In this document: positions 13,751-61,394 of the stretch, piece by piece | Position numbering within the stretch: position 1 is the first letter of the stretch | Layout: each line of letters starts with the position of its first letter | Assembly (NCBI GenBank): GCA_963835575.1 | Contig: CAWIGG010000006.1 | Location: forward strand, 101,151 to 165,150 | Source: an uncultured Spirochaetota bacterium | Lineage (GTDB): Bacteria > Spirochaetota > Brevinematia > Brevinematales > JAOACQ01 | Reading direction: 5' to 3' | DNA length: 64,000 nt | Made by a program: the position numbers and the translations under genes | Notes under the pieces: model-generated | What the model was told of the DNA's origin: nothing | Database searches by the model: none | The model's input: the letters and a program-made list of their open reading frames with translations, nothing else

Positions 13751-13901
13751 AAAGAAATAATTCACAGGAAGGCGGGAAGACGGGAAGACGGGAAGGTTTT
13801 TAATGATTTATTTATTTTCATTGCCGTTCAAGTTATAAATTTATTAAACTGTGATTTGCTAGAAATTTGAAAGAACCGGAATTTCACACAGAGTGCACAG
13901 A

Positions 13902-15602: not shown

Positions 15603-15817
15603 AGAGAGCACAGAGTAAGCTATAATTCTTTATCTGCATAAGATTAAACAATATCCCTTTGTACTCCGTGTTCTCTGTGCGGGAAAAATAATTTTTTAGG
15701 ATTCTGAAACATTATTTTTTTGCTGTCTAAATTGCAATTTCAAATCTGGAAATTAAATTTTATTTCTAAAATCTCCAGATTTTTCTTCGTGTCTTCCCGC
15801 CTTCCTGTAAAACCCGT

Positions 15818-16975: not shown

Positions 16976-17038
16976 GGAGGCTCCTTCTAATCGGAAAAGT
17001 ATTGTTAGTCGAATAACTTATAACTTTAACAAAAGGCC

Positions 17039-17184
17039 CGTCATTGCGAGCATCAATTTATCTTCTTTGCCGCTGATTATCGTGCGAAGCAATCTGTAAT
17101 TTCATAAAGTCATCTTTATTTGCAGACAGTTTGCTTCGCTCTAAAATTATCAGCAAGGCATAAAACAGGATGCTCGCAATGACG
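17039..17184. repeat. nested inverted repeats with no ORF inside
   Basis: Outer: CGTCATTGCGAGCATC (17039-17054) versus GATGCTCGCAATGACG (17169-17184), a perfect 16-bp IR. Inner: GCGAAGCAATCTG (17084-17096) versus CAGTTTGCTTCGC (17127-17139), matching 12/13. Confidence 0.8.
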
Positions 17185-17223
17185 GCTTTTATTTAACATA
17201 ATCATTTTACGTTCGAAAATCCT

Positions 17224-23870: not shown

Positions 23871-25390
23871 GTAACTATCCAGCCACTAAAAAATAGTCAC
23901 ATGAAATATTTGCATTGAGCATGAAACCATGCTATTCTATAGCATGAATGAAGATAGAAGAGAAAAAGACTGTGCGGCCTGCTTAAAACGATTTGAAGGC
24001 ATCATTGCTGATTTACAAAACCAGATAAAGGAGCAGGGTTTAATCATTCAAAGACAAGCGGAAAAGATTAAGAAATTGGAAGAACAGCTTAATAAGGACA
24101 GCCATAACAGCAATAAACCGCCGTCTTCCGATAATCCATTCCAAAATACAGTAAAGAATTTACGGAAAAAGAGCGGTAAAAAACAAGGCGGCCAGTTTGG
24201 ACATAAGGGAAATACTCTGAAGAAAGTAGAAAGCCCTGATAAGATCATAGAACATCAGGTTGAAAAATGTTCCTGTTGTGGAATTGATTTAAGTTCCGAA
24301 TCAGTTAAGCGGACGGAAAGAAGGCAGGTGTTCGATATACCTCCGATAAAAGTGGAAGTTACCGAACATCGCTCGGAAGTAAAAGATTGTCCGCATTGCG
24401 GTGCGAGAGTAACGGCGGAGTTTCCGGAAGGCATAACCAATAAGGCACAGTATGGAAAAAACATTAAAGCGCATCTGGTCTATATGAAAACATATGGGTT
24501 GATACCCTATGAAAGGCTTTCGGAATACGCCGAATGTTTATTGGGAGTGCCGCTCAGCAAGGCAACGATTGAAGGATTTATCCGGGAGACCTACAATAAA
24601 TTAGAAGAGTATGAACAGAAAGTCATAGAACTGATACTAAAAGAAGTGGTTCTTCACTGTGATGAAACCGGTATTCGGATAAAAGGGTTATTAAAATGGC
24701 TCCATGTTGCCTCGAATGAACGTTTTACCTATTATTTTTCTCATGACAAACGCGGCACAGAGGCGATGCGTGCGATGGACATTCTCACAAGATTTACCGG
24801 TATTATTATCCACGATGGATGGAAAAGTTATCTGGAATTCTTATGCCGTCATGGATTGTGTAATGTACACCATTTGAGAGAGCTAATCTGGATACATGAG
24901 GAAATGGGTCAGGAATGGGCTAAGGAGATGGGTAATCTTCTTATAAGGATTAAGAATGATAAAGAGGCAAGTTTTCCAATACCGGCGGAAAGGATTATAG
25001 AATATGATACGGAATATGACCGGATCATCGCGAAAGGATTTGCTGTAAATCCAACGCCTGAAAAGCCGGAAGGACTTGTTAAACGCGGCAGAAAAAAGCG
25101 GGGCAAGGTTTTATGCCTATTAGACCGATTAAGAAAATATAAAGAATCTGTCCTTTTATTTATGCGGGAAAAAGATGTTCCATTCAGCAACAATTTGGCG
25201 GAACGGGATATCAGAATGATAAAAGTCCAGCAGAAAATATCAGGTACATTCAGAAGCTGGAATGGAGCGGCTGCCTTTTGCAGAATCAGGGGTTATATAT
25301 CTACAGTAAAAAAGATGGGCGTCAGTGTTTATCAAGCCCTTATTGACGCGTTGAACGGCTCCGCTATTAAATATGCGGCTGGATAGTTAC
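23871..25390 (+). mobile_element. IS66-family insertion sequence (single-ORF type), intact
   Basis: Perfect 14-bp TIR GTAACTATCCAGCC (23871-23884, and complement of 25377-25390). An 8-bp direct target duplication TAATATTC lies at 23863-23870 and 25391-25398. A GTAA terminus and an 8-bp TSD are IS66 hallmarks. Confidence 0.9.
23929..25386 (+). CDS. IS66-family transposase
   Basis: Leucine-zipper N-terminus, CPHCG zinc finger, HCDETG, WLHVA, IIHDGWKSY, CNVHHLREL and PFSNNLAERDIRMIKVQQKISGTFRS. The stop codon lies inside the right TIR. Confidence 0.9.
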   Translation: MLFYSMNEDRREKDCAACLKRFEGIIADLQNQIKEQGLIIQRQAEKIKKLEEQLNKDSHNSNKPPSSDNPFQNTVKNLRKKSGKKQGGQFGHKGNTLKKVESPDKIIEHQVEKCSCCGIDLSSESVKRTERRQVFDIPPIKVEVTEHRSEVKDCPHCGARVTAEFPEGITNKAQYGKNIKAHLVYMKTYGLIPYERLSEYAECLLGVPLSKATIEGFIRETYNKLEEYEQKVIELILKEVVLHCDETGIRIKGLLKWLHVASNERFTYYFSHDKRGTEAMRAMDILTRFTGIIIHDGWKSYLEFLCRHGLCNVHHLRELIWIHEEMGQEWAKEMGNLLIRIKNDKEASFPIPAERIIEYDTEYDRIIAKGFAVNPTPEKPEGLVKRGRKKRGKVLCLLDRLRKYKESVLLFMREKDVPFSNNLAERDIRMIKVQQKISGTFRSWNGAAAFCRIRGYISTVKKMGVSVYQALIDALNGSAIKYAAG

Positions 25391-34901: not shown

Positions 34902-35228
34902 TTATTTAGTTTTTATGACTGTGTCTTCTATCCAGGCAAGATAATCTTCTGAGCCGCCTGTAATAGGCGTCGCGATGATTTCTGGGACCTGGTAAGGGTG
35001 AATTTTCTTGACGGCTTGTTCTATTTCGTCGAATAAATCCTGTTTGGTTTTAATAATCAAAGTCCATTCTTTTTTCTTTTCCCTTTTCCCCTTCCACCAA
35101 TACAGGCTCTTTACAGGCCCGCCGATCTGCACGCATGCCGCAAGCCTTGCTTCCAGCAGGGCGTCCGCTATTTTATACGCCGGTTTTTTACTATTGACCG
35201 TGACCCTGATTTCTATATAATTGTTCAT
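34902..35228 (-). CDS. cutA: divalent-cation tolerance protein CutA
   Basis: Contains RLAACVQIGGPVKSLYWWKGK...HPYQVPEIIATPI...YLAWI. Confidence 0.85.
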   Translation of the reverse strand: MNNYIEIRVTVNSKKPAYKIADALLEARLAACVQIGGPVKSLYWWKGKREKKKEWTLIIKTKQDLFDEIEQAVKKIHPYQVPEIIATPITGGSEDYLAWIEDTVIKTK

Positions 35229-35287
35229 ATGAACCCTTAATTGATGTGCGGCACATCAGCTTTTAAGAAATTTTAATATTGATTAAA

Positions 35288-35422
35288 GACCTTTGCACGG
35301 TAAACTTAAGTTAATTCGCTACCTGATAAAACTTTAGGCAATAAATTGCCGCTTTAAACTGGACTTTTGCACGGTTTCTATTTAATTATCCGTTAATGGT
35401 TTGCGGAAACCGTGCAAAAGTC
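35288..35422. repeat. GACTTTTGCACGG-word inverted repeat (plus one extra half-copy)
   Basis: Perfect 17-bp IR GACTTTTGCACGGTTTC (35362-35378) versus GAAACCGTGCAAAAGTC (35406-35422). There is a third degenerate copy, GACCTTTGCACGGTAAAC (35288-35305), and a nearby palindrome GATGTGCgGCACATC (35243-35257). Confidence 0.8.
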
Positions 35423-35472
35423 TTGATTAAATATAATAAAAAGAGAGTAAAAAGTGAAATTATCAAGTTTGT

Positions 35473-36159
35473 CTAGACAGTTTTTAAGCATTTCTCCTTT
35501 ATCTTGAACGCATCGTTCAAATGAACGACCTGATGCCGCGCGGCGGGCATCAGCAAAATTCCGGCCGTCGTTTTTCTGCCCCAGAAATCGATCAGCCAGA
35601 CGGAATCTTTGTCTTCCAGAACGCCGCCTTCATCCAGAATCCGTTTGAGCCGGTCCGGGGCCGGTTTTTTTTTCATGTCTTCATACTTTAATCCGCCGAT
35701 GATATGCCGGGTCTGCCGACCCACGGCCATGCGGTAATTCCGGAGTTCCGTCCAGTTGATTTTTGCGCTGAAATCAAGGATTTCATCCCTTGTCATGGCA
35801 TTGCCCGTGTCCCGGACGGATGTGTTCAGCCGTTTGTTCCAATCACCGCTGTTTATGACCTGGCTGTCTCCTTCTATAAGGATATTAACGGTGATGTCCT
35901 CGATGCGCGTGATATGCCAGATATTCCATGCGATTGTCAGAGCATGGCCGGCCGGCAGGGCGCGGAACATGCTTTCCGTCAGGCCGTCCCACAATTTGTC
36001 CTCGAAGGTTTGCGTTTTACTGCCCGAAACGTCCGAAGCATGAAGCAGCGCATGCATTTCCAGGCAGAGGGAGACGGCCTCAATAAATCTTCCGGGGTTG
36101 TTGATGATTTCTTTCAGCCGTGATTGTTTCGGATTCCATTGAGCGGCGGATATTGTCAT
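35473..36159 (-). CDS. hypothetical protein (possibly DinB-like helical bundle)
   Basis: 228-aa ORF. The spaced His residues and helical pattern are only weakly suggestive of DinB. Confidence 0.4.
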   Translation of the reverse strand: MTISAAQWNPKQSRLKEIINNPGRFIEAVSLCLEMHALLHASDVSGSKTQTFEDKLWDGLTESMFRALPAGHALTIAWNIWHITRIEDITVNILIEGDSQVINSGDWNKRLNTSVRDTGNAMTRDEILDFSAKINWTELRNYRMAVGRQTRHIIGGLKYEDMKKKPAPDRLKRILDEGGVLEDKDSVWLIDFWGRKTTAGILLMPAARHQVVHLNDAFKIKEKCLKTV

Positions 36160-36183
36160 ACTGTTTCCTTATTTACTGAAGAG

Positions 36184-37686
36184 TCATTTTGTCTTGAGAT
36201 ATTTATTGTAGATCCATCCCATCACCTTGTTTTTTTCATCGTAAACATAGCTCCATTTTCCCTTTTCGGCTATCACCAGCACCTTGTCTCCCTTCACAAG
36301 TACCGACGCTATGTAATATTGAGTATAGTTTTTGGACTCTTCGGCGGTCTTATCCCAGTCCTTGAAAGATTCAAACTCTATACGTCTCACGGCGACATAG
36401 TCCCCCGTCAGGACAGCCTCCGCCGGATCCTCAAGCGACAGCCGGAGCGCCGTTCTGTCCATCGTGATTTCGAAATCATCCTTTTTTACCTTGATATAAC
36501 CCCGGTTCATGGCGTAAGCGACAACATTTGAAGCGCTTTCGATCACGGGAAACATCAAGGGGTATACTCCATTGCGGTTTTTTTGGTAAATAATATTGCC
36601 GTCTTTGTCTCTGAAATAATCGCCGAGATTACCGTTTTCGTTGGCGGGTATAGTTATATACTTCCCATCCTGTCCCTCGTTTGATATAATATAAAAATTA
36701 ATATTGTTTGAAATTAAGCCTTCCTGATATTTTGATGTTTCAATTTCGATAATAGCGGTATCATTGTCGTCTGTTAAATAATAATAAGCTTTGACAGCAT
36801 CCCCTTTCTTAAGTTCCGTAAACTGGATGTTGGTCAAGCCGGGATCTGCATCTGAGGAATAGATTGAAAAGTAAACGGGTAGGGGCTTGTTGATCACAAT
36901 TTTATCCCTTATGGACACCGCTTCGCAGTTTCCGCTGTCCGGATTAAGGACAAGAATCCCGTTTTTCCCCAAAAAAAAGATTTTGCTGTTAAAATAACCG
37001 GTATCGATCAGATCGACCGCCATCGGCAGCCTGAAGAAGGCGTTTCTTTTTTCATTGAACAGGACATAGTTGTCTTCAGGAAGGTCCAATGTGCCCATTC
37101 CGGCCGTTTTCTTTCCGAAAATGATCAGGTCGACATTGCGGAATTTATAGAATTTTTTAATTTCGCACTGTGTATCCATCTCGAAGTCGACGCGCTGTCC
37201 GGTGCCGGTATCGAAAAAAGTGCAATCGCATTGAGCAGAATCGGGACTAACCCCGACGTTTGCTACAAAAAGGAACCTATTGTTGACAAGAGCAAATGCC
37301 GGCGGATAATCGGGGGTGAATTCAAATTCGCCTTTTATCGCGGAATTTTTTGCCTTGAAAGAGTATTTGAGAAAGTATCCTTTGAATGAATAATTCAATA
37401 CGCCGTCCTTGAAACGGTAAGTCCCGGTATAACTTTCCCGGTCCTCTTTTTTTATCTCGTAACTTTGAATCGAGCTCGAGCCTTTATATTCGTTCTTTTT
37501 TGCCAGGTTTTCCAGGAACAGCGTTTTATCGAGCCTTCCGGGAGACCAGTATATTTTTGCGTTGGTGACCAGTAAGGATGATTGCAGGGAATCGGAAAAA
37601 CCGATTTTTTTAGGACTTACAGGATCGCCGTAAATCATGGAAATACAATTGATAAGTATCATAAGCGGGATGAAAATGAATTTCAT
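36184..37686 (-). CDS. secreted protein with C-terminal SH3b-like domain, paralog A
   Basis: AGGAGG SD before the ATG at 37686, then the signal peptide MKFIFIPLMILINCISMIYG. The C-terminus is GDKVLVIAEKGKWSYVYDEKNKVMGWIYNKYLKTK. It is collinear with the next gene. Confidence 0.7.
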   Translation of the reverse strand: MKFIFIPLMILINCISMIYGDPVSPKKIGFSDSLQSSLLVTNAKIYWSPGRLDKTLFLENLAKKNEYKGSSSIQSYEIKKEDRESYTGTYRFKDGVLNYSFKGYFLKYSFKAKNSAIKGEFEFTPDYPPAFALVNNRFLFVANVGVSPDSAQCDCTFFDTGTGQRVDFEMDTQCEIKKFYKFRNVDLIIFGKKTAGMGTLDLPEDNYVLFNEKRNAFFRLPMAVDLIDTGYFNSKIFFLGKNGILVLNPDSGNCEAVSIRDKIVINKPLPVYFSIYSSDADPGLTNIQFTELKKGDAVKAYYYLTDDNDTAIIEIETSKYQEGLISNNINFYIISNEGQDGKYITIPANENGNLGDYFRDKDGNIIYQKNRNGVYPLMFPVIESASNVVAYAMNRGYIKVKKDDFEITMDRTALRLSLEDPAEAVLTGDYVAVRRIEFESFKDWDKTAEESKNYTQYYIASVLVKGDKVLVIAEKGKWSYVYDEKNKVMGWIYNKYLKTK

Positions 37687-37835
37687 TTTGATCCTCCTGA
37701 AATTTAATGGCTTTCCGGTAAAGATTTTCACTTTTCCATTCAGGGCATATTTTGACACAAGCTCTTTGGTCCATTTTTCAAGCTCCATAGTTTTATCTCC
37801 TTGTAGCAAAGGAGCCAAAATATTTATAAACGGAA

Positions 37836-39374
37836 CTATACTTTCGCTTTAAGGTATTTATTATATATCCATCCTGATTTTTGATTCTTGACATCATTCA
37901 CAAAGCTCCATTTTCCCTTTTCGATCAAAACGAATACCGTGTCACCGGTCATAAGTCTTGATAGGATGGGATAGTTTGAATATTCCTTCGAATCGTCCGC
38001 GGATTTTTCCCAATCCCTGAAGGCTGCCGGATCGAGATTTCTCAGATAGACATTATCCCCGGTCAGGGCGGCTTCCTTAGGCTCCTGGATCAGGATTTTA
38101 AAATTCTGCCTGTCGGCGTTAAAATCGATACCTTCCGGGTTCGGCTGGATTAGGCGGCGGTTCATTTCGAAATAGACTTGGTCCGGCGTCTTTTTAGTCA
38201 GAGGGAACGAAAGCGGGTAAATCCCCCTGCGGTTATTCTCATAGATGACGGAGCCGTTCGTGTCACTGACATAATATCGGTGAAATGAGTTGTTCAGATC
38301 GAAGACAACGGAATAGGAATCGTTCAGCCCGGCGGTATGATTGGTTATTACAGAAATAAAATCGTTTGAGACCGTCCCTGTCCAATGATAAGACGTATCG
38401 ATTTCGATGAGAGGATCGCCGTCCCGGTTGGTCGTATAAAAATAAGCCCTGATATCATGGCTGTCAGGGCCAATATGTTCCAATTGAAGGTTCGTAAATC
38501 TGAAATTAAGAAGCGGGTAGCCGTTCGTATCGCTGTATTCGTCATAGACAGGTAGGGAAACCGGTATAGTATTATGGATTGTCAGTCGGCGGTCCAGGGT
38601 CATAAGGGTGCTCTCCCCGCTCAGGGGATTGAAGGCAAAAAGCCCCCGGGTCGTCACGAAAATCAGTTTATTGTTATCATTCCGGGCATCCAGAAGGTTT
38701 CCGGGCACCGGAAACCTCATGAAGACATTCTTCTTTTCGTTGAATATGACATAGTCGTTTAACGGTATCAATATGCGGTTGATGCTCCGATTGCCGGGAT
38801 TTCCGAAAACAATGACCGTGATGTCTTTGAATTTCTCGGCAAGCTTGATCTCGGCCCGTTCCATACCGAAGCGCAGATTTTGTCCTGTGACAATATCATA
38901 AAAAGCACAGTCCATCAAATCGTAATCGGGATCTATTGCCCGCGAAACGACCATAAGAAGTCTGCCGCCGATCAAGGCGAACTCCGGCGGCTGAGAGCTG
39001 TCGGTCTGAAATTCCCCTTTGATGATATTTCCATTCTTCATTTTAAGGCTGAATTTGCCGGATATTCCCTTTACCGAATAATTCAGAACGTCAGAGCCGA
39101 AATTGTGCGATCCCGAATAATCTTTCGAGCCTTCTGTAGCCGGGCTGAATTTGTTGATTTTTAAGCCAGTGAGGGCGTTCTTTTTGGAAAGGTACTCGAA
39201 GAACAGGGATTTATCGAGCCTTCCGGACAACCAGTAGATCTTGTTATTCGTGACCTCGAGAGACGCCTGAGAGCACTCCTGAAAGTCGATGGTTTCCGTA
39301 GTCATAACATCGGCGATCGAAAATGTTGCAGGAATCAGCATAATGACGATGATGGGAATTAAAGAAAGTCTCAT
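37836..39374 (-). CDS. secreted protein with C-terminal SH3b-like domain, paralog B
   Basis: Signal peptide present. Shared blocks include VTNNKIYWLSGRLDKSLFFEYLSKKN and a C-terminus GDTVFVLIEKGKWSFVNDVKNQKSGWIYNKYLKAKV. Confidence 0.7.
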   Translation of the reverse strand: MRLSLIPIIVIMLIPATFSIADVMTTETIDFQECSQASLEVTNNKIYWLSGRLDKSLFFEYLSKKNALTGLKINKFSPATEGSKDYSGSHNFGSDVLNYSVKGISGKFSLKMKNGNIIKGEFQTDSSQPPEFALIGGRLLMVVSRAIDPDYDLMDCAFYDIVTGQNLRFGMERAEIKLAEKFKDITVIVFGNPGNRSINRILIPLNDYVIFNEKKNVFMRFPVPGNLLDARNDNNKLIFVTTRGLFAFNPLSGESTLMTLDRRLTIHNTIPVSLPVYDEYSDTNGYPLLNFRFTNLQLEHIGPDSHDIRAYFYTTNRDGDPLIEIDTSYHWTGTVSNDFISVITNHTAGLNDSYSVVFDLNNSFHRYYVSDTNGSVIYENNRRGIYPLSFPLTKKTPDQVYFEMNRRLIQPNPEGIDFNADRQNFKILIQEPKEAALTGDNVYLRNLDPAAFRDWEKSADDSKEYSNYPILSRLMTGDTVFVLIEKGKWSFVNDVKNQKSGWIYNKYLKAKV

Positions 39375-39384
39375 TCAAATCTCC

Positions 39385-40170
39385 TCATATCCCGAAATCG
39401 TATTCGATGGAAACCCTTCCGTTTTGATGCTTTTTAAAAATAAGGGATGCGAATGAAGATTCCACTGCTTGTTTATAATCTTTTCGTATTTTTAAATACT
39501 GAAGATCTGCGGTGCCGGTATGGGGAAGGGATAACGTATGCCGGGCGGCCTCAAAATGATAGTTTGTGAATTCTTCATCATTATTCAGAGCCAAATTGCT
39601 CTGATCAGCCGGGATATCGGTGCTTTTATTTATCGATTCCGTATAGTATTTTGTTATCAGATAGGCTTCCTCGATTGTTCCGGCCGGGAGATAAATAATA
39701 TATCTGCCCCATTCCCATCCCAGATCCGACTTGACAACGATGCCGTTTTCGTAAACGTCCACCGTCTCGGTCTGGGACGATTCCCCGGTATCGCCGGTAT
39801 CGTCCAGCAATACATGGTCCCGGAGCTTGAAATTGTTCGAGATATAGCTGACGAGGTCCGGGCAGGTTTTTTCCGGCGGTTTGAACCTTGTCAGATAGCC
39901 GCCGAAAACATAGCCGGTTTTATTGTCATAACGGACTTTTGCCCAATTTCCGGCAATGCCGTCGTCCATCAATTCCGTCTTTCCGGTTTGTTCAAGAAGA
40001 GTCACTTTGCCTTTGAATGGTATTTTTGCCAGGAGCTTGCTTTCTTTACCAGGCTGTTCCCTCAAGGAAAGGTATGTCGAGCACAAAGCATAATATTCGT
40101 TGCTTTGCTTCTTATCTTCGCCGCTGCAGAATACCGGGAAAAGGAAAAAAAGAATTATGAAGAACCTCAT
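39385..40170 (-). CDS. lipoprotein with N-terminal SH3b-like domain
   Basis: Lipobox (FPVFCSG), then LSLREQPGKESKLLAKIPFKGKVTLLEQTG...GNWAKVRYDNKTGYVFGGYL. Confidence 0.65.
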   Translation of the reverse strand: MRFFIILFFLFPVFCSGEDKKQSNEYYALCSTYLSLREQPGKESKLLAKIPFKGKVTLLEQTGKTELMDDGIAGNWAKVRYDNKTGYVFGGYLTRFKPPEKTCPDLVSYISNNFKLRDHVLLDDTGDTGESSQTETVDVYENGIVVKSDLGWEWGRYIIYLPAGTIEEAYLITKYYTESINKSTDIPADQSNLALNNDEEFTNYHFEAARHTLSLPHTGTADLQYLKIRKDYKQAVESSFASLIFKKHQNGRVSIEYDFGI

Positions 40171-40512
40171 TTTATCCTCCTACGAAAAATTAAAAAATGA
40201 AGGGACATGGTGTACCGGGTCTGCCGGAATAGCGCATGAAATTACATCGCATCTGCTATGTTTAAAATAATTCTGTTTTCAACCGTAATGGATTCGTTTA
40301 AATTATGATAATGCCCGATTAAATGATCCTTCAATATTTCACAAGCCCTACTATGAGTGTTATCGCTGACCAAATGTGTAAAGGAATAGGCCTTATTGAA
40401 AATAAAATTATACGCTTCTTCCAATTTGATCTTTTCTTTCCATTTCCAATCGGCTCCAGCTTTCTCAATATTGGGTTTTTCTACAGATTCGTTGAGCGAA
40501 GTTGTTGGCCAT

Positions 40513-41298
40513 CTATACTTGAGCTTCTACTTCCAATCTTTTCATTTTAACATGACAAATATTATTTTTATCTAAAGGATATTTTTGAATATAATCTTCA
40601 GCAATTTCATTAATTAAAATATTCTTCTCATTTTCTTGGACTCTTTGGATATAAGACGAAAATGCTGTTCTAATCCAGTCAAATAATCCTTCTTTTCCAA
40701 TTTGCGTCATATCTTTATCTATTAACTCGACTCTTTTAGCTTTTAAGCCAGCTTCTAATATCCAGTTCATATATTCATCTTTATCAAAATACCAAAATAG
40801 ATTTGTAAAATCTTTAAAATAACTTTTCCATTTCTCCTTTTTAATAATATTTTCTACTATTGCAATTAAATCTTCTTGATTTCCTTTTCCACCCATCTGT
40901 AAAAAAACTTTTCCATCTGGTTTTAAAGCTTTTTTTATTTTTTTTAAAACAGTTAACTGATCATTTATCCAATGAAGTGTTGCTGTCGAAAAAATAATAT
41001 TAAATTCTTTTTCAAAATTAATATTCCTTGCATCTATAAATAGAAAATCAATATTTTTATAATTTGATTTATTATATTTATTTTTTGAATAATTTATCAT
41101 TTCTAATGAAGCATCTATTCCTAATATAAAACCTTGGGGAATTAATTTTGATATTTCAGCAGTAATTATTCCATCACCACAACCAATATCTAATATTTTT
41201 TCAGTTCCTTTTAATGATAGTTTAGATATTAATTCAAAAGCCCAATATTTTTGTTGAGATGAACTTTTATTATAATCTTCAGGATTCCACTTAATCAT
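40513..41298 (-). CDS. class I SAM-dependent methyltransferase (small-molecule/Tam-like), AT-rich
   Basis: Motif I ILDIGCGDGIIT is present, with a Methyltransf_11/25-like layout. GGAGG SD upstream. Confidence 0.75.
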   Translation of the reverse strand: MIKWNPEDYNKSSSQQKYWAFELISKLSLKGTEKILDIGCGDGIITAEISKLIPQGFILGIDASLEMINYSKNKYNKSNYKNIDFLFIDARNINFEKEFNIIFSTATLHWINDQLTVLKKIKKALKPDGKVFLQMGGKGNQEDLIAIVENIIKKEKWKSYFKDFTNLFWYFDKDEYMNWILEAGLKAKRVELIDKDMTQIGKEGLFDWIRTAFSSYIQRVQENEKNILINEIAEDYIQKYPLDKNNICHVKMKRLEVEAQV

Positions 41299-41315
41299 TT
41301 AATTAACCTCCAAAT

Positions 41316-41501
41316 CGCCAACAATTTCAGCTAACGGTGCGGCTTGGCGACGTTTTGCGGTCCGAAGGACTGGCGCGACTTTTGCGTCCCACGCAGCAAA
41401 AGTCGTGACAGAGCCAAATGTGTCCGCAGGACCGAGGACCGCCCGGAGACCGCAGTCGAGGACGGACCGGAGCGCTAAGCCGTCGTTGTGCGAAGTTGGC
41501 A
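41316..41501. repeat. GC-rich ~190-bp imperfect palindrome between two AT-rich ORFs (attC-like layout)
   Basis: Minus-strand reading: TGCCAACTTCGCACAACGACGGCTTAGCGC...GCCGCACCGTTAGCTGAAATTGTTGGCG. The terminal boxes GCCAAC/GTTGGC pair. An internal hairpin CGACTTTTGC/GCAAAAGTCG is present. Confidence 0.7.
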
Positions 41502-41966
41502 TTAATTTTTGATAATTAATAAGTCTTCATTTGATGGTATTTCACCATTTTTATATTTATGTAAATCACAGTATAATAGCAATAAAATTATTGAACCAAA
41601 TCTCAATTGTTTCCAGTTTTTTCCTTTTGATTCATCAATTAAATCTTTTGCATATTTAGCTAAATTTGGACATTGATCAGCTAACTTTCTTGATTCTTTA
41701 ATTATAAAACCTTCATTTCCATTATTTATATGGTCTTGAAATTCTTTGATAAATTCATCATCTTTAATATTATTTTGAAATCTTATTTTTGATGTTATTT
41801 GCATTGCGAGCATTTCTGCATCTTGTAAATTTGATAATTTACTTTGAACATCAATTACATTAATATTTTTAATTTTTTCCCGGCTCATTTTTTTCATAAC
41901 ATTAGTAATTACCATAATTAGTATTATAACAACAACTATAAAACCTAATACATAAATAAGAGTCAT
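41502..41966 (-). CDS. hypothetical protein with N-terminal TM helix, AT-rich
   Basis: 154-aa ORF with a GGAGG SD. N-terminus MTLIYVLGFIVVVIILIMVI. No family recognised. Confidence 0.55.
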   Translation of the reverse strand: MTLIYVLGFIVVVIILIMVITNVMKKMSREKIKNINVIDVQSKLSNLQDAEMLAMQITSKIRFQNNIKDDEFIKEFQDHINNGNEGFIIKESRKLADQCPNLAKYAKDLIDESKGKNWKQLRFGSIILLLLYCDLHKYKNGEIPSNEDLLIIKN

Positions 41967-42050
41967 ATATCAAAACCTCCAACTAAAATTAATGCCAACT
42001 TCGCACAGACGGTGCGGCTATACGACGTGGCGGTGGTGTTTTTCTAATGT

Positions 42051-42950
42051 CTATTCTTCAATAAAATAATCCGTATCTACTTTGCTAATTTTAAAACTTC
42101 TTTTAATAGAAACACCCACTTCATTTTCAATCATTAATTCTGTCAATTTCTTTCCATCAATTAAAATTATAGCACAATCAATATTTTGTGCATATTCAAG
42201 TGCTTCTTTTGAAAATGAGGATGTTGTAATAAATATTCCTTTTTTAGCTCTTTTGCCTTGAAGTGCACCAACAAATTTTTGTATTTCTGGACAAACAACA
42301 ACATTATCCCATTTTTTAGCTTGAAGATATATTTTATCTAATCCCAATTTATCTTCCTTAATTATTCCATCAATACCTTCATCATTAGTTTTTTGAGTTA
42401 CTTCACCATTTTCAATATCAGAACCACCATAACCAATTTTAATTAATAAGTCAACAACTAATTTTTCAAAAAAGTATGAAGAACCATCTTTTATTTGATT
42501 AATTAATTGGAGTGACAATTCATCCGTTATTTGTTTAAAGCCAATTTCAATTAATTCATCTGGAGTTTTTTCCAATATTTCTTCACTGGTTTCTATGGAA
42601 TCATCTTTATCTGGATTTTTATTTTTTGAAAAAGCAGGAAATTCTTTTAAAAATGAAATAGTTATTTTAACCGGTGGGCTTTTTAAAACCTTTTTACCGG
42701 TAATAGTAATTTGATATTCTCCTCTGCGTGGTGATGATATTAAATCAGCCTTTTTCAAATATGCCATAGCCCAGGCAACCCTATTATAATAAAGGGGCTG
42801 AGTACCGGAAGAAATCTTTTCTTTTTGTTCATCATCAGATATTTTAAAATGGTTAATCATTTCTAATCTGATATCTCTATGTGTTTTTATTGTATCGTTC
42901 TTTAAAGCATTGAGCATTGGTAACATAATAGACTGAAAATCAGGTATCAT
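42051..42950 (-). CDS. mrr: Mrr-type restriction endonuclease (type IV)
   Basis: Mrr_N-like winged helix (LPMLNAL...YNRVAWAMAYLKKADLI...GEYQITITGKKVL). The Mrr catalytic core FEKLVVDLL...DEGIDGIIKEDKLGLDKIYLQAKKW is also present. Confidence 0.8.
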   Translation of the reverse strand: MIPDFQSIMLPMLNALKNDTIKTHRDIRLEMINHFKISDDEQKEKISSGTQPLYYNRVAWAMAYLKKADLISSPRRGEYQITITGKKVLKSPPVKITISFLKEFPAFSKNKNPDKDDSIETSEEILEKTPDELIEIGFKQITDELSLQLINQIKDGSSYFFEKLVVDLLIKIGYGGSDIENGEVTQKTNDEGIDGIIKEDKLGLDKIYLQAKKWDNVVVCPEIQKFVGALQGKRAKKGIFITTSSFSKEALEYAQNIDCAIILIDGKKLTELMIENEVGVSIKRSFKISKVDTDYFIEE

Positions 42951-43024
42951 AAGTATTTCTCCTTGAAAATATAATTCACCAGCCCACCGCCAGGTCGTCT
43001 AACTAATAATATATGAATAAAATA

Positions 43025-43975
43025 CTATCCCGGCATCAAATATCCGCCGCTTTTTCTGAGTATTTCTGCGTAGGCGGCGACGCCTTTTTCAAGAGAAGTG
43101 AATTCTTTCGAGTAGCCGGCATTGCGGAGCTGTGCGAGATCGGCGCGGGTATAGCCCTGGTATTTACCCTTAAGCTCTTCGGGGAAAGGAATGAACTCTA
43201 TTTTTGAGCCCGGGAACGATCCCTCCATTATTTCGGCGATTTTGAGAAAGCTCTCGGCCTGTCCGGTGCCGCAGTTAAAGATGCCTTTCTTTGAGGGGTT
43301 TTTCCTGAAAAAGAGATTGATGTCTACGATGTCTTTCACGAAAATAAAATCCCGTAAAAAATCCGCGCTTCCCTCAAAAAGCCTGATCCGGCTTTCTTTC
43401 ATGATCTCATTATAAAAATGATAGACGACGGAAGCCATTCTGCCCTTGTGGTTTTCCTGCGGGCCATAGACATTGAAGTACCGGAGGCCTATGATCTGGC
43501 TCCTGCTTCTATGAATGATCTTTCTGACATACTGGTCAAAAAGGTATTTGGAAAAGGCGTAGATATTCAGAGGGTATTCACAGCTTCTTTCCTCTTTAAA
43601 GCCTTTTTTACCGTCGCCGTAAACCGAAGCGGAGGAAGCGTAGATAAAGGGGATCCTGTTTTCCAGGCAGAAATGGAGGACAAGCTTGGAATATTCGTAA
43701 TTATTTTCCATCATATATTTGCCGTCCTGTTCCATCGTGTCGGAGCAGGCACCCTGAAGAAAAATGCAATCGATCTTTAATTTATTGAGATGGTTTAAAC
43801 TCCTGACGAAATCCAGTTTGTCCATATAGTCGGCGAATTCCAGGCTGTTGAGGTTTTTATGCTTTTCACTATTCTTAAGATTATCAACAATCAGAATGTC
43901 CTTTTCAGACTCATCATTCAGGCCCCTGACAAGGTTAGATCCTATAAAACCAGCTCCTCCCGTGACGACGATCAT
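43025..43975 (-). CDS. hldD: ADP-L-glycero-D-manno-heptose-6-epimerase
   Basis: MIVVTGGAGFIGSNLVRGLN...ILIVDNL...YASSASVYG...YAFSK is the classical RfaD/HldD pattern. It has a 4-nt overlap with hldE. Confidence 0.9.
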   Translation of the reverse strand: MIVVTGGAGFIGSNLVRGLNDESEKDILIVDNLKNSEKHKNLNSLEFADYMDKLDFVRSLNHLNKLKIDCIFLQGACSDTMEQDGKYMMENNYEYSKLVLHFCLENRIPFIYASSASVYGDGKKGFKEERSCEYPLNIYAFSKYLFDQYVRKIIHRSRSQIIGLRYFNVYGPQENHKGRMASVVYHFYNEIMKESRIRLFEGSADFLRDFIFVKDIVDINLFFRKNPSKKGIFNCGTGQAESFLKIAEIMEGSFPGSKIEFIPFPEELKGKYQGYTRADLAQLRNAGYSKEFTSLEKGVAAYAEILRKSGGYLMPG

Positions 43976-46777: not shown

Positions 46778-48415
46778 GCTGTTCAAGCGGCCGCATAAAT
46801 TTGTCAGTTAACCTTCCGTTTTTCCGTCCAATCCTTTCTAACTTTTCAAAAATCTGTTTTTTGCAGTTACAAGGGCGCAGTTTCCCCCTTCTTTAAGCGG
46901 AGTCAAAAACATCCAGAAAGGCTTTCATTACGCAAAGCTGTCCGAGAGCCTTTGAAATACCGCTTTTTCAGTGAAACTTGAGCAAAAATGCAGCCATACT
47001 CTCCGGACTGTTTCTTTTACCTGTACAGCAACTTTCAGAATTTTTAACCGTATAGTGTCGGCTTGCGCTTTCTCATATTCTGTACCTTTCAATCCCTTCC
47101 TTAAGCGCTGCATGCATTGATAGGCAAAACCCGCAAGAATCAGCCGGAAATAATTTGCCATATATCGATGGCAGCTCAAACGGTCAAGATTCATATCCTT
47201 TTTCAGTTCCTTGATCCGGTTTTCCATATCTCCACGCTTCGCATAGAATCTGTATGCATACCTTGCCTTTGAAAATTTCCAATTGGTTATCAGATAACGG
47301 GTGTCCTGTCCCAATTCATTGCAGCGTATCCGGGCGATAATCATTCGTTCTTTTTCCCAGCTTTGTGCACGGTATTTGAAATTCGTATGAAGCGTCTTTT
47401 CTTTCCCGCTTTTTTGAAAATATGTCTTTGCCCTGCGGGATAGCTTTCTTGTCCTCTTCTCCAATCTCCGGTAACCCTTTATTCCCAGAATATAATGGAG
47501 ATCATTTTGTTCGCAATATTCGTATATCTTCGGGTTTTCAAATCCGGCGTCACCTCGCAGGATTATCCGGATCTCCGGTTGTCGCCTCCTTATTGCCAAA
47601 ACAATTCTCCTGATCATAGCAAGCGCGTCCTTTGCCGGACCCGCGTTTCCCTGCCGCAGTTTAATCGCCGCAAGGTCTCCGGTATCTCCGTCACAAACAA
47701 TCAGCGGTGAGTACATCGTTTGTTCATAAAAACCGTTGAACAGGCTTCCTTCCTGTTTACCATGCGTCGGATCATCCGTGCCGTCTATGTCAAGAACAAC
47801 ACTTTCCGCTTTACGCTCTATCAAGCTGTCAATGTACCAGTCCGTCATACAGAAATCAAGCTTCGTTATATCCCGAAGGTTTATGCTGTTCTCAAGCCTG
47901 GACAGCGTCGGCTGGCTGGACAGGGTATCTCCGCTTTCAGGTAAACGCCCTGCCGCGAATTTAAACATCGGGTCATACCGTAATACTCCCGCGTCGTTGG
48001 TGTCTTCATACCCCATGATCATTTGGCTGACCCGTTGTCCGATCAATTCACTCATTTCATGAATTATCCGGTCCTGGTCCCTGCAATCCTCAATACAACC
48101 GGATATTCTATTGATAATTCCGGTCTTTTTTAAGAGCCCGGATACCAGAAACAGCCCGCCGTCAGTGGATATGTCGCCGCCGTTCCAGTCCATCTCAATA
48201 GTCTTGCCTAAAAAGGCAAAACCGCTTGATTTTTCTTCTTGTTTATGACATACTGTTTTCACCGCGTATCTCCTCTTTGGGGTATTTTTAGGTCGCAATT
48301 AATTATATCATAAAGAGTAAAGTTACGCGGCTTTTTTTATACTTTTTTTCAGGTGAATAATCCGGGCTATTTATGGTTACCCGCAATTTATCCGCTTAAT
48401 ACGAAATTTAACAGT
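46778..48415 (-). mobile_element. IS1380-family insertion sequence (boundaries approximate)
   Basis: Imperfect terminal inverted repeats: AAGCGGccgcATAAATTtGtcaGTTAACC (46785-46813) versus GGTTACCCGCAATTTATCCGCTT (48375-48397). They may extend to the CTGTT.AA words at about 46778 and 48415. The TSD is not resolved. Confidence 0.55.
46928..48298 (-). CDS. IS1380-family DDE transposase
   Basis: 456 aa, with ISTDGGLFL, VLDIDGTDDPTHGKQEGSLFNGFYEQTMYSPL, RGDAGF and YAKRGDMENRIKELK. Confidence 0.85.
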   Translation of the reverse strand: MRPKNTPKRRYAVKTVCHKQEEKSSGFAFLGKTIEMDWNGGDISTDGGLFLVSGLLKKTGIINRISGCIEDCRDQDRIIHEMSELIGQRVSQMIMGYEDTNDAGVLRYDPMFKFAAGRLPESGDTLSSQPTLSRLENSINLRDITKLDFCMTDWYIDSLIERKAESVVLDIDGTDDPTHGKQEGSLFNGFYEQTMYSPLIVCDGDTGDLAAIKLRQGNAGPAKDALAMIRRIVLAIRRRQPEIRIILRGDAGFENPKIYEYCEQNDLHYILGIKGYRRLEKRTRKLSRRAKTYFQKSGKEKTLHTNFKYRAQSWEKERMIIARIRCNELGQDTRYLITNWKFSKARYAYRFYAKRGDMENRIKELKKDMNLDRLSCHRYMANYFRLILAGFAYQCMQRLRKGLKGTEYEKAQADTIRLKILKVAVQVKETVRRVWLHFCSSFTEKAVFQRLSDSFA

Positions 48416-51583: not shown

Positions 51584-53425
51584 TGTCTATAAAAAAAGCG
51601 CTAAAAGTTTTAATATTTTGATATTATTTCTTGAAAAAAACAGATAAAATATATTTTTAAATAATTTCATTTATTTGACCTGTATTCCGGTATTATATAT
51701 AGAGAGAAACAAGAGAGTTATTTATGGGGATTAAGGCTTTATCCGATTCTGCCGCGGATGACGGTTTCTCTCCGGCAGGCTTTTCCTCCTATTTTCATGA
51801 GAAATGCGATAAACCTGCCGTTGCCTTTGGGGCGAACGGCAGGTGTTTTTTTCTCCTCTCCTTGTTGCCTGTCGGTTTTTATAACATGCTTCATGGACAT
51901 ACGGCAGGGTTCCCGTTAAAATAAAACGGGAGAAAAAGATGGCAAGATTTGAAAAGAACAGCCTGGAGCAGGGTGAGTTCCTCGCGATCAATATAGGCGA
52001 GCAGTTTGATGAGAATTCCAGAGAATTTATACTAAAAGAATTCATCAAAAACCGTATTAAACTGGAGGATTTCGCGGCTTACTATAAGAACAACCATAGA
52101 GGCAGAGAGATTAAAAATCCTCGGGATGTGATCTGTGCGGTACTCTACGGTTACATTACGGGAAATCGTATCAGCCGAAAGATAGAAGATTTGCTGAAAA
52201 AACACATTGGGTTTATGTATGTTTCAAACCGGCTGAAAATTGACCATTCGGTAATTTGCGAGTTCAAGGTACTTTTTCAGGAAAAGATCGAGGAGTTGTT
52301 CAGCCAGCTTTTATATATACTCAACGAAATGGGGTCTATAGATTGGGACATGGTAGTGGGTGACGGCACAAAGATCAAGGCCTACGCGAGTAAGAATAAG
52401 AATGTGGGAAAGAAACATACCCGGAAGCTGATGGACACTTACCAGAAGATGGCGGAAAAGATTGTGAAACAAGACCTGGAACTGGAAGAATCTTACCGGG
52501 AAGGCAAGCTGGAGCAGCCTTATTACGAAGCGGAGAAGAAGCGGGTATCAAGGCGGAAAAAGATTTACGATAGTGTTTTGAACCAAATCGATGAATACAA
52601 AAAACAGGTAGAGAGAGGGGAAAAGACAGACGAAGAATTCACCAACCTGACTGATCCCGAAAGCAAGCTGATGTCTGGAAATCCGCATAGTGTGTTTATA
52701 CAGGGATATAATTCGGCGATGATGGTCAGTAATAATGATGTGATTATAGATTTTGAAGCAATCACAACACCGGAAAAACAGCATACGGAAGAAATGGTAA
52801 AGAGGGTGGAACAGAAAAAAGCGGAATTAAAAGTTGATAAGGCTAGCAAATACCTTTTTGATTCGGGTTTTCAGGACATGGAAGAGACAATCCGGATGGT
52901 GGAGGAAGGAAAAGACCTTTATGTGGATACGAAAGAGCGGGATTTCAGTGATAAATCACAGAAGCGAAGAGACTTTAAACTGGAAAAGATTGATGACGAA
53001 TATATCCTGGGATGCCGGGGCGGCCGTAAGGAAAATGGGTATTTAGATCGAAATAACCAAAGATATACATTTTTGTATTCACGGAAGGGCTGTGAAAGAT
53101 GTCCATTTTTCAGTGAGTGTTATAAAAACATCAAACCGAAAACACAGCAAAAGACAGTAATTTTCAGTGAGTTTGAATTGAATAATCGGTCTAAGATTGA
53201 TGCTTATTTAACAAAACTTTACAGCGAAGAAGGGCAAAAGATATACAACCGCAGGATAGGTAAAGAACACGTATTTTCAAACATCAAAACACAGAAGGGT
53301 TATGTTCAGACAGTTTACAGAGGTCAACGGAAAGTGAATTTGGAGCTATGCTGGGTATCCCTTGCGCATAATTTTATGAAATATGCCCAATATTTGAGAA
53401 AATAGAGAGGATTTTGTATAGTCTG
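51584..53425 (+). mobile_element. second IS1182-like element (right end clear, left end tentative)
   Basis: The right terminus TTTTGTATAGTCTG (53412-53425) reverse-complements to CAGACTATACAAAA, resembling the CAGACTGTGTGAAAAA terminus of the first element. Only a weak left match exists (GTGTCTATAAAAAA at about 51584). Confidence 0.4.
51939..53405 (+). CDS. IS1182/IS5-like DDE transposase
   Basis: The N-terminal DUF772-like region has ICAVLYGYITGNRISRKIEDLL...YVSNRLKIDHSVICEF. A Cys-rich segment follows (CERCPFFSECY). The C-terminus is HVFSNIKTQKGYVQTVYRGQRKVNLELCWVSLAHNFMKY. Confidence 0.75.
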   Translation: MARFEKNSLEQGEFLAINIGEQFDENSREFILKEFIKNRIKLEDFAAYYKNNHRGREIKNPRDVICAVLYGYITGNRISRKIEDLLKKHIGFMYVSNRLKIDHSVICEFKVLFQEKIEELFSQLLYILNEMGSIDWDMVVGDGTKIKAYASKNKNVGKKHTRKLMDTYQKMAEKIVKQDLELEESYREGKLEQPYYEAEKKRVSRRKKIYDSVLNQIDEYKKQVERGEKTDEEFTNLTDPESKLMSGNPHSVFIQGYNSAMMVSNNDVIIDFEAITTPEKQHTEEMVKRVEQKKAELKVDKASKYLFDSGFQDMEETIRMVEEGKDLYVDTKERDFSDKSQKRRDFKLEKIDDEYILGCRGGRKENGYLDRNNQRYTFLYSRKGCERCPFFSECYKNIKPKTQQKTVIFSEFELNNRSKIDAYLTKLYSEEGQKIYNRRIGKEHVFSNIKTQKGYVQTVYRGQRKVNLELCWVSLAHNFMKYAQYLRK

Positions 53426-59943: not shown

Positions 59944-61227
59944 TTAATGAGCTGTCCCAGATAAATCATAAGGCCCATTATAAATTTCATAGATATTAGA
60001 ATTTCCTTTTGCGCCTTTATTGATCAGCAGGTGAATTATAGAGTCGTCATAACCTTTTATTACGGCCATATCCAGCGGTCTGATTCCGCCATTGAATTTA
60101 TATCCGGAGTCAATTACAGCCAAAGAAAACTCTTTAGTCATTCTATTTAAATTTTTAGATTTGTTAATTATCTTTTTTATTAATTCATTATCCAGTTTAT
60201 GATACAAAGCCCAATGAAGAATGGTCCATCCTTCAGGACGCTCAATATCAAAACTTGCTGTTTTATCAATTAAAAAAGCTATGTTATTTGACTTAATGCC
60301 GCAATACATCAGGTCCAAAGGACTTTCTGAAGTTCCAAACCTTTTAAATAAATAATATAATAAAATTTCTCCAAAAAGATTGTTTTCTTGAGGGTTAAGA
60401 ATATTGTCTTTATATATATCATAAAATAAATAGACAGGCTGCATTGTTTTAAAAGCGCATAAAAAATAGAAATTATTGGTATAAAATGATTCGCTCTTTA
60501 AAACCGGGGCCGGCATATTAGTGAGCATAATATTATAGATTGTGTTTATTTTATTCTCATCGGATTGAAGGCCTTCGACGGCATAATGTCTGGTCATTGA
60601 ATAAAAGAATGTTTCCTTATTATTAAAAGATAATAATGCAAATAATTTATAAAAATTCACCTCGTCTAAAGACAATAAAGTATCCATTGAAATTGCATCA
60701 TTTGAAATCATATAATCCAAGAAATTTGTGTAATTGAAATTGATTGAATCAATTAAATAACTGTTTGTATGATAGTCATACCCTAATTCGTTTATTAAAT
60801 AAATGTATATGGAAAAATATTTTCCGTTAAAATAAGAAGAAATCCTATTATCGTATAAATTAAATGCCAGATAAAAATTTGCGCCTCTTTCTACCAGATA
60901 CTTATATGTTTCCTTGTTTTCATTTGTGAAAGCGACAAAAAGCGGATAATATCCATTTGTGTCAGGCAAATTGACATTGCCTCCATTTGTAAATAAAAAT
61001 TCAATAATGTTTAAATTGTTTTTTTGCAGCGATAATGCAAATGGCGAGCAATATTGCTTATATGGAATATCATTTATTATCTTATACTTCTCTTTCATGG
61101 AAAACCCGGATAAATAATTAGTTGTATTATTATAATCATTCTTCTGTATATAATTCATTAAGTCAGAAGATTTATTACAGCTTGAAAATAAAATAAAAAT
61201 CAGAACAACCCGGATTTTTATATTCAT
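59944..61227 (-). CDS. AT-rich lipoprotein with ankyrin-like repeats
   Basis: AGGAG SD before the ATG at 61227, then MNIKIRVVLIFILFSSC (lipobox). ANK-like units include GWTILHWALYHKLDNELIKKIINK and RPLDMAVIKGYDDSIIHLLINKGAKGN. Confidence 0.6.
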   Translation of the reverse strand: MNIKIRVVLIFILFSSCNKSSDLMNYIQKNDYNNTTNYLSGFSMKEKYKIINDIPYKQYCSPFALSLQKNNLNIIEFLFTNGGNVNLPDTNGYYPLFVAFTNENKETYKYLVERGANFYLAFNLYDNRISSYFNGKYFSIYIYLINELGYDYHTNSYLIDSINFNYTNFLDYMISNDAISMDTLLSLDEVNFYKLFALLSFNNKETFFYSMTRHYAVEGLQSDENKINTIYNIMLTNMPAPVLKSESFYTNNFYFLCAFKTMQPVYLFYDIYKDNILNPQENNLFGEILLYYLFKRFGTSESPLDLMYCGIKSNNIAFLIDKTASFDIERPEGWTILHWALYHKLDNELIKKIINKSKNLNRMTKEFSLAVIDSGYKFNGGIRPLDMAVIKGYDDSIIHLLINKGAKGNSNIYEIYNGPYDLSGTAH

Positions 61228-61394
61228 ATGAACTCCTTTATTTTGAATTTCAAGTATTAATAACCAATTTTCGCTTAGCAAAGCATGCGAAGTTCAGCCA
61301 AAACTTGATTCAATTAACACATCGCTTGCAGAGCGTGTAGAATCGCAGTTAGCGGTGACTAACACAGCATAAAGCAGCTGTTAAGCACCGTTAC

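Follow-up and report, generated by a model that had tools for sequence, protein, structure and literature searches.

Three foreign, AT-rich genes, each between its own GC-rich inverted arms, downstream of hldD in a Brevinematales spirochaete

The 64,000 nucleotides of an uncultured Spirochaetota bacterium analysed here (assembly GCA_963835575.1, contig CAWIGG010000006.1, positions 101,151-165,150; hereafter the window) hold an AT-rich island of three minus-strand open reading frames (ORFs), bounded by hldD (43975-43025) and the first SH3b gene (40170-39385). We tentatively interpret this island as an acquired tandem of three single-gene units, in which each AT-rich ORF, with its Shine-Dalgarno (SD) sequence, lies inside its own GC-rich inverted arms, the arms coming from a palindromic-module family resident in the genome; it is the account that we prefer, and we give it a little less than an even chance of being correct. 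An earlier note on this DNA had described the island as organised like integron gene cassettes, with four GC-rich palindromic elements (i to iv, in minus-strand reading) at the ORF boundaries. All coordinates and quoted strings of that description match the sequence, and its integron interpretation is taken up below. The units are numbered 0 (mrr), 1 (ORFan) and 2 (methyltransferase), arm b lying upstream and arm a downstream of the ORF.

42984-43001, minus strand: arm b0, upstream of mrr, TAGACGACCTGGCGGTGG, inside element i (42977-43003); 16 of 18 positions complementary to 42019-42036.
42051-42950, minus strand: mrr, encoding a Mrr-family (type IV, modification-dependent) restriction endonuclease of 299 aa, 28% GC, identified with Pfam.
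42019-42036, minus strand: arm a0, downstream of mrr, CCACCGCCACGTCGTATA, left half of element ii, placed by inverted-repeat pairing and folds.
41985-42019, minus strand: arm b1, upstream of the ORFan, AGCCGCACCGTC TGTGCGAAGTTGGCATTAATTTT, right half of element ii; its perfect part is 41985-42007.
41502-41966, minus strand: ORFan membrane protein of 154 aa with an N-terminal hydrophobic helix, 22% GC, no Pfam or NCBIfam match.
41473-41509, minus strand: arm a1, downstream of the ORFan and including its stop codon, AAAATTAATGCCAACTTCGCACA ACGACGGCTTAGCG, left end of element iii.
41360-41472, minus strand: GC-rich spacer between the second and third units, centre of element iii, with small hairpins, e.g., CGACTTTTGC...GCAAAAGTCG.
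41316-41359, minus strand: arm b2, upstream of the methyltransferase gene, CGCAAAACGT CGCCAAGCCG CACCGTTAGC TGAAATTGTTGGCG, right end of element iii.
40513-41298, minus strand: gene for a Tam/BioC-like class I S-adenosylmethionine-dependent (small-molecule) methyltransferase of 261 aa, 24% GC (Pfam Methyltransf_31/25/11).
40490-40510, minus strand: arm a2, downstream of the methyltransferase gene, GGCCAACAACTTCGCTCAACG, equal to element iv, recovered by inverted-repeat scan, flank score, fold and duplex.

The association of each gene with its own pair of arms is seen most directly in their complementarity. The ORFan lies within a perfect inverted pair of 23 nt (41487-41509 with 41985-42007, 23 of 23), the methyltransferase gene within inverted arms that pair at about 12 of 15 nt, and mrr within the pair of 16 in 18 listed above, which the earlier note had rightly recognised as formed by repeat (i) and the start of repeat (ii). 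When 98 ORFs, from the window and three related loci, were scored for flanking inverted repeats, the island ORFs came first, joint third and in a four-way tie for places seven to ten; an IS66 transposase with its terminal repeats also surfaced in this scoring. The duplexes predicted across the ORFs have energies of -46.7 kcal/mol for b1/a1 (z score -10.1; 23 perfect pairs and more), -33.2 kcal/mol for b0/a0 (z -5.1) and -24.4 kcal/mol for b2/a2 (z -3.5). The attC-type pairing within an element amounts to -28.8 kcal/mol for a1/b2 in element iii (z -3.9) and to -16.9 kcal/mol for a0/b1 in element ii (z -1.8), which is not significant; judged from these modelled energies, element ii is two unrelated arms set back to back and forms no hairpin. 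Both minimum-free-energy and centroid folds of the three units close with the arms that flank the ORF, and a stem around a single ORF, the feature by which ORF-bearing intervening-sequence-like elements are recognised, was found in the island units. One rule, each ORF within its own inverted-arm pair, fits all three genes without assumed deletions.

The positions of the elements are consistent from unit to unit. Their GC contents are 0.67, 0.63, 0.62 and 0.57 (i to iv), and they begin 12, 0 and 2 nt past stop codons and finish 13-26 nt ahead of the next ATG, in agreement with the placement of GC-rich palindromes between stop codon and ATG that had been noticed before. The ORFs themselves have a GC content of 0.28, 0.22 and 0.24 versus 0.45 in both hldD and the SH3b gene and 0.43 in the whole window, and each has its own SD (AAGGAG for mrr, GGAGG for the 154-aa ORF and the methyltransferase gene), so that the earlier observations on AT content and on SD sequences both hold.

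The same arm style brackets a gene of the GxxExxY family 30 kb from the island, and the window contains two GxxExxY units.

11520-11990, plus strand: intact GxxExxY gene unit (gene 11573-11962; arms 11520-11548 and 11963-11990), NCBIfam TIGR04256 at 143 bits.
6650-7207, plus strand: GxxExxY pseudogene unit (gene 6725-7102, with an in-frame TAG after ...GYLEAVY), with 34-nt arms of CACAGAT motifs.

Both copies are bracketed like the island ORFs, by arms whose sequences differ between the two. The intact unit lies between lemA and a DUF2207 gene; its 28-nt inverted arms, one starting at the stop codon and the other ending 24 nt before the ATG, each carry three CGCNAAG motifs at exact 10-nt spacing, and its predicted RNA fold (minimum-free-energy and centroid) closes with these arms. 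There are only four clusters of CGCNAA[GA] motifs spaced by exactly 10 nt in the 64 kb, located in a solo arm at 2396, in the two arms of the intact GxxExxY unit and in arm b2 of the island, whereas shuffled sequence gives 0.5 such clusters. Arm b2 has two CGCNAAG-type motifs, at 41343 and 41353, in keeping with the pattern of the family, in which CGCNAAG arms at 10-nt spacing stand in sense upstream and in antisense downstream of the ORF. Single CTTCGC, CTTAGCG or GCGAAG motifs in the expected orientation are present in each of arms a1, a2 and b1; a1 carries both CTTCGC and CTTAGCG, the complements of CGCNAAG. Furthermore, the reverse complement of a1 aligns to the solo module at 2396-2430 with a score of 29, reached by none of 500 shuffles. 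The exact words GCGAAGTTGGC and AGCCGCACCGT of the island have no other occurrence in the window, and the arms are therefore related to the other modules by style and motif and not as copies. From their motifs, the ORFan and methyltransferase arms appear to belong to a genome-resident style of short CGCNAAG-type motifs in helical phase, and at the level of sequence a palindromic-module family seems better supported than attC sites. The earlier note had offered a window-wide family of this kind as its fallback, and this is correct in kind, as the arm motif style recurs and brackets GxxExxY genes, but not to the letter: the exact words recur nowhere else and the mrr arms lack the motif.

Several observations weigh against the reading of the island as three arm-bracketed units of a resident family. 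Searches with exact patterns, which are insensitive, revealed no second copy of any island arm in the window or among GTDB species representatives and JGI metagenomes; membership in the family is therefore argued from motif style and a single modest alignment, that of a1 to 2396-2430, and the p-value of this alignment has little margin after correction for about 30 comparisons. The absence of any CGCNAAG motif from the mrr arms counts here as well. No recombinase was identified among the window ORFs scanned. The folds of whole units have weak z scores for mrr (-1.7) and for the methyltransferase (-0.6), though long-range stems appear, and translating ribosomes would oppose stems spanning 0.5-1 kb. 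Finally, element iii folds on itself with R/L-like boxes, as an attC site would.

That the island genes are horizontally acquired is indicated by their foreign composition and their absence from relatives. The nearest hldD homologues (73, 68 and 69% identity) are from Brevinematales-type spirochaete genomes, two of them from the same sample. The gene order GT9, hldE, hldD, cutA, LPG_synthase_C occurs in all three, and in each of them cutA directly follows hldD (from an 8-nt gene overlap to a 67-nt gap) and the island is absent, which answers the question of presence or absence in relatives that the earlier note had raised. The window retains cutA (35228-34902) and LPG_synthase_C (34889-34008), with cutA 7.8 kb downstream of hldD; given the adjacency of hldD and cutA in the relatives, about 7.8 kb must have been inserted after hldD. 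Besides the AT-rich island, this insertion comprises three SH3b paralogues, a DinB_2 gene and the remnant of an ORF that lacks a start codon, and foreign composition within it is limited to the three-ORF island, which is co-oriented with hldD upstream and cutA downstream. The tandem SH3b-type paralogues of the insertion (35228-43025) are 261, 512 and 544 aa long and, like the DinB_2 gene, have a host-like GC content. The remnant is the following:

40242-40489, minus strand: start-less open frame ending in ...NIADAM and a stop codon, 35% GC, running into the end of the methyltransferase gene (to 40510), without domain or family match.

This frame is probably what remains of the 3' part of a gene that was truncated on arrival of the island. 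The 64 kb also contain four DDE transposase genes, one IS4-like (46928-48298, directly upstream of the GT9-hldE-hldD operon), one IS66 (23929-25386) and two IS1182-like (13995-15491 and 51939-53405), and the region therefore looks prone to rearrangement.

The product of mrr contains an Mrr_N (winged-helix) domain (9.5e-27) and an Mrr_cat (PD-(D/E)XK) domain (1.7e-33), both past the curated Pfam cut-offs, and on this domain content it can be assigned to the Mrr-family type IV restriction endonucleases; its best plasmid-borne homologues have at most 48% identity and, like those of the methyltransferase, occur in ordinary contexts outside arrays. The 154-aa ORFan matched itself alone, both among 5.8 billion sequences and among 1.84 billion cluster representatives (full HMMER, exhaustive). 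For the methyltransferase, the NCBIfam matches (trans-aconitate methyltransferase and BioC) are all well under their cut-offs, and the best homologues, 53-56% identical, reside in ordinary chromosomal contexts outside arrays. Over 6,968 nt, a Logan contig from the same sample differs from the window only by a 1-nt deletion at 41256, which shifts the methyltransferase frame near codon 14, the gene being called as 195 aa on that contig; this may be either an assembly error or a pseudogenised population variant. A 67-aa ORF called on the same contig within the spacer 41360-41472 has no domain and is probably spurious. A 35-nt stretch upstream of lemA (10865-10899) is 80% identical to part of the methyltransferase coding sequence (41221-41255), including the exact 16-mer TTGGGCTTTTGAATTA, a likeness that is borderline for chance.

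Because of their layout the elements were compared with integron attC sites using two covariance models, both searched on both strands. The Spirochaetes attC model came from the supplement of Ghaly et al. (2021; PMC8352920), with the authors' cut-off of 43 bits, and was scored with our own implementation of the Cocke-Younger-Kasami algorithm; its consensus-state lines were transcribed exactly and its remaining states were taken from template lines, so that our version, which gives 106 bits for the model's own consensus, is approximate for non-consensus states. Nowhere in the window did a local score exceed 15.4 bits, the value reached by a hairpin within element iii. When aligned over its full length, with GCCAAC and GTTGGC as its ends, element iii scored -9 bits in the sense of the ORFs and -12 bits on the plus strand, and without the loop-length penalty it was outside the 25 best window matches. 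A 75-nt palindrome at 61312-61386 (minus strand; GCTTAAC...GTTAATT), with a hydrolase gene on one side and an AT-rich ankyrin-repeat ORF (27% GC; 59944-61281) on the other, was joint second in the window with this model, at just 12.7 bits (E about 0.3). The second model, R2, was built on class 1 integron arrays from 18 plasmid records, seeded with nine attC sites and rebuilt from the 25 sites found. On untrained sites it gave 34.7 bits for IMP-1, 24.2 for IMP-4, 20.2 for dfrA27, 15.9 for arr-3 and 13.5 for catB11, the last two being weak, and it missed dfrA1 and dfrA14; its training was solely on mobile-integron sites, and since its sensitivity is imperfect, a negative result with R2 is informative but not absolute. 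With filters off, it found nothing above 7 bits in the 5 kb around the island and at most 2.5 bits inside element iii. Its sole match in the window, a 36-nt mini-palindrome (GTTTAAC...GTTGGAT; 20.5 bits) at 25049-25084 on the minus strand, inside the IS66 transposase gene, is too short for an attC site and is most likely due to chance.

The details of the elements conform to attC sites only in part. The ORF-distal arm of element iii is the longer one (spacer of 10 vs 7 nt, CAC vs A), whereas the Spirochaetes model and aadA1-type sites have their bulges on the left arm, with the extra bases ORF-proximal (R''-L''). The extrahelical bases, which the earlier note had proposed to look for by folding, thus belong, read in ORF sense, to the L'-R' arm, opposite to their place in a canonical attC. 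Of the RYYYAAC/GTTRRRY consensus, GCCAAC...GTTGGC of element iii keeps AAC/GTT alone; element i has only GTTAGAC, element iv only R'', and element ii has R' without R'' and, as its z score of -1.8 indicates, without self-pairing, just as the earlier note had missed a convincing 5' arm in it. The perfect complementarity of b1 and a1 extends 9 nt beyond the crossover point, after the G of GTT, at which integron cassettes are separated. Pfam or NCBIfam scans of ~45 window ORFs revealed no tyrosine recombinase (PF00589-type); a few ORFs of 120 aa or more fell outside these scans. The integron likeness described earlier is therefore borne out for the layout (single ORFs, SD sequences, palindromes from stop to start, GTT/AAC cores) but not for attC membership, to which both models, the polarity, element ii and the lack of a recombinase in the scanned ORFs are opposed. 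Our results do not support regarding the elements as integron attC sites or filing the island as an integron or as a cluster of attC sites lacking integron-integrases (CALIN). As a practical warning, an integron-like layout with GTT/AAC cores is insufficient for calling attC sites.

The integron reading can still be cast as a degenerate cassette array (CALIN) with atypical attC sites, its cassettes having been inserted by an IntI encoded elsewhere in the genome; element iii would then be a complete attC of 186 nt, element ii internally deleted, element iv truncated and element i an R' core at a secondary site. This would explain the cassette-like layout, with single ORFs that have an SD and no visible promoter and elements that span from stop codon to next start, the AAC/GTT cores (GCCAAC...GTTGGC in element iii, GTTAGAC in element i), and an ORFan, compositionally foreign cargo typical of cassettes. 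It would also account for the fold of element iii, in which the ends are paired, the internal loop is asymmetric, the AACG/CGTT box has a bulge and the centre is long and variable; this fold exceeds shuffled sequence in stability (z -3.9 on the plus and -2.3 on the minus strand). Moreover, by inspection, the sequence after the G of GTT upstream of the ORFs complements the start of the following element (14 of 14, 7 of 8 and 16 of 19 nt), as after a crossover at R', and integrons and CALIN are known in Spirochaetes (PMC4889954; PMC8352920). However, neither model matched, R2 failing on the island although it recovered the held-out sites of IMP-1, IMP-4, dfrA27 and arr-3. The lack of self-pairing in element ii forces an ad hoc deletion upon this reading, the b1/a1 complementarity past the presumed crossover is not predicted by a cassette model, and element iii has its extra bases on the wrong arm. 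There is no integrase among the window ORFs scanned, and the same bracket style surrounds a GxxExxY gene outside any array. An array of this kind seems to us rather improbable.

Alternatively, the elements may be intergenic palindromes of the host, comparable to repetitive extragenic palindromes and bacterial interspersed mosaic elements (REP/BIME) or to mRNA-stabilising hairpins, that punctuate an acquired three-gene operon, the arms having formed in place without a role in the arrival of the genes. The window is indeed rich in GC-rich modules of periodic motifs, both empty and filled (2455-2545, 17038-17185, 35353-35431, 13761-15811), their motif style is that of the island, and small empty hairpins occupy the centre of element iii. 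These points must be set against the base-level regularity with which arms are placed at stops and just upstream of SDs in the three island units and both GxxExxY units, and against the unit-specific partner arms, of which the ORFan pair, perfect over 23 nt, would be hard to obtain by accumulation around a recent ORF of 22% GC; nor does any element have a terminator-like T-run. We consider an origin from host palindromes unlikely. A further candidate is a set of non-autonomous passenger-gene transposons, such as mobile insertion cassettes or miniature inverted-repeat transposable elements (MITEs), whose arms would be terminal inverted repeats recognised in trans by a transposase of the genome. 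Phased multiple repeats in transposon ends serve as binding arrays, as in the ends of Tn7 and Mu, which counts in favour of this possibility, as do the four DDE transposase genes of the window, one of them 4 kb off. An ORF between terminal inverted repeats is the defining layout of mobile insertion cassettes (MIC231, cited in PMC6542083). In contrast, the arms are not significantly similar to the flanks of the window's four insertion sequences and differ from unit to unit, inspection revealed no target-site duplication, and no second copy was found, which makes this the most improbable of the explanations considered.

Further searches bear on copies, mobility and RNA families. In the GTDB representatives, which do not include the source genome, the pattern GTCGNNNAGCCGCACCGTN{6,14}GTTGGC had 106 matches, all in GC-rich coding DNA; exact-pattern scans of JGI metagenomes and IMG/VR gave 15 spurious and 44 chance matches, respectively, and no relative, and blastn of the island DNA against plasmids gave no match. 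A look-up of the GxxExxY protein on further contigs returned no record. Cassette mobility could not be traced through the cargo genes either and was dropped as a line of argument, the ORFan having no homologues, the methyltransferase chromosomal ones and mrr only distant ones on plasmids. In Rfam the island is empty at gathering thresholds, and at E<=5 there is one chance sub-threshold match, to a microRNA family, inside the mrr ORF; the window contains no rRNA (Rfam) and no tRNA genes. Terminators or known RNAs were rejected as identities of the elements, as a scan found no terminator-like T-run at them and no Rfam family is present. Insertion-sequence ends were rejected as well: none of the window's four insertion sequences has flanks to which the arms are significantly similar (best p 0.015 in 128 comparisons), and no target-site duplication is evident around the units by inspection. 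Inspection likewise revealed no dif-like 11-6-11 site with a TTATG-type XerD arm, by which dif/pdif-like sites were set aside, and an origin by fusion of hairpin telomeres (ResT-type) was dropped as unsupported.

If the island indeed consists of arm-bracketed units, transcription would allow each arm pair to close a long stalk around its ORF, by analogy with the ORF-bearing intervening sequences of rRNA. The island is co-oriented with hldD and cutA, and read-through transcripts would therefore let such stalks form. A stalk of this type would be a natural substrate for RNase III, and its cleavage would excise each foreign gene from the read-through transcripts; alternatively, the stalk may gate translation of the enclosed ORF, a possibility proposed because it ends few bases from the SD. 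By this analogy we put forward RNase III-type processing or translational gating with modest confidence. As for the DNA, the ORFs were probably inserted into palindromic modules or together with them; this may have involved insertion at the apex of a module, joint transfer of ORF and arms in a non-autonomous element, or a recombination system not yet recognised. A more far-reaching possibility is a spirochaete gene-capture system distinct from integrons, installing promoterless foreign ORFs in host-typed palindromic modules whose hairpin arms end up around the ORF. Each unit would then be a circularly permuted integron cassette in which exchange takes place at the hairpin's outer or apical end and not at R', and the GxxExxY units would be its commonest passengers or possibly its agents. 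We regard such a system as quite unlikely. If the brackets are functional, they would provide a compact domestication of foreign genes, each insulated, and perhaps processed, by its own stalk within a host operon, and the ORF-in-stem-loop design, so far known from rRNA intervening sequences, would extend to ordinary cargo, a restriction nuclease for example. Should the arms prove to be recombination sites, this poorly sampled order of spirochaetes would have its own cassette system in parallel with integrons.

Other palindromic modules occur in the window. At 2394-2545 a solo CGCTAAG/CGCGAAG arm that lacks a partner in inverted orientation precedes an empty hairpin; this hairpin is built of CACAGAG-type motifs and contains GCTATAAT. 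A CACAGAG...GCTATAAT stretch is also present at 15587-15640, and CACAGAG-type motifs without GCTATAAT at 13867-13917. The IS1182-like DDE transposase gene at 13995-15491 lies inside two nested inverted-repeat pairs (13761-15811), the outer one made of GGGAAGAC motifs, as if an insertion sequence had landed within a palindromic module. At 17038-17185, between an AAA ATPase gene and a Thy1-domain gene, lies a large empty hairpin whose 60-nt arms are 77% complementary and whose loop measures 28 nt.

Of the known systems, integron cassettes and CALIN have the same tandem of co-oriented, promoterless-looking single ORFs of foreign or ORFan type, the same GC-rich imperfect palindromes in stop-to-start gaps and AAC/GTT inverse cores, and likewise repeats that look host-typed with cargo that looks foreign. 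They differ in that the island matches neither attC model, that only one of its four elements forms a self-pairing hairpin, that its best-pairing arms flank the ORF instead of both lying 3' of it, as in a cassette opened at the hairpin apex and not at R', that its bulge asymmetry is reversed and that no IntI is in view. Among palindromic and recombination modules more generally, REP/BIME are mosaic clusters of intergenic palindromic modules and pdif sites (XerC/D) are inverted recombination sites that flank gene modules; the exact words of the island do not recur in the window, and a dif-like site is lacking by inspection. Mobile insertion cassettes and MITEs (MIC231, Bacillus cereus) also have passenger ORFs between inverted repeats with no transposase inside, whereas for the island neither cognate insertion-sequence ends in the window nor a target-site duplication nor multiple copies were found.

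The intervening sequence of Coxiella, which has an ORF between terminal inverted repeats of 28 bp, is cleaved by RNase III and has been suspected of being mobile (PMC4990558). Such ORF-bearing intervening sequences of 23S rRNA (S23p type; Coxiella, Leptospira; PMC4990558) resemble the island in having a small ORF inside a terminal-inverted-repeat stem of 20-30 bp. Their stem is an RNase III substrate and the element is suspected to be selfish or mobile, two properties that, by analogy, may also apply to the island. The island, in contrast, is located in a protein-coding operon (hldD-cutA) and not in rRNA, has three tandem units, and carries mrr, an ORFan and a methyltransferase gene instead of S23p; what it has in common with these sequences is the stem around the ORF, but neither the rRNA location nor the cargo. 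The GxxExxY units of the window (TIGR04256, PD-(D/E)XK-like) have cargo of another family, are solitary and do not have the exact arm sequences of the island, but they share with it the GC-rich arms, one beginning at the stop codon and the other ending ~20 nt before the ATG, the lower GC content of the enclosed ORF and the CGCNAAG motifs at 10-nt spacing.

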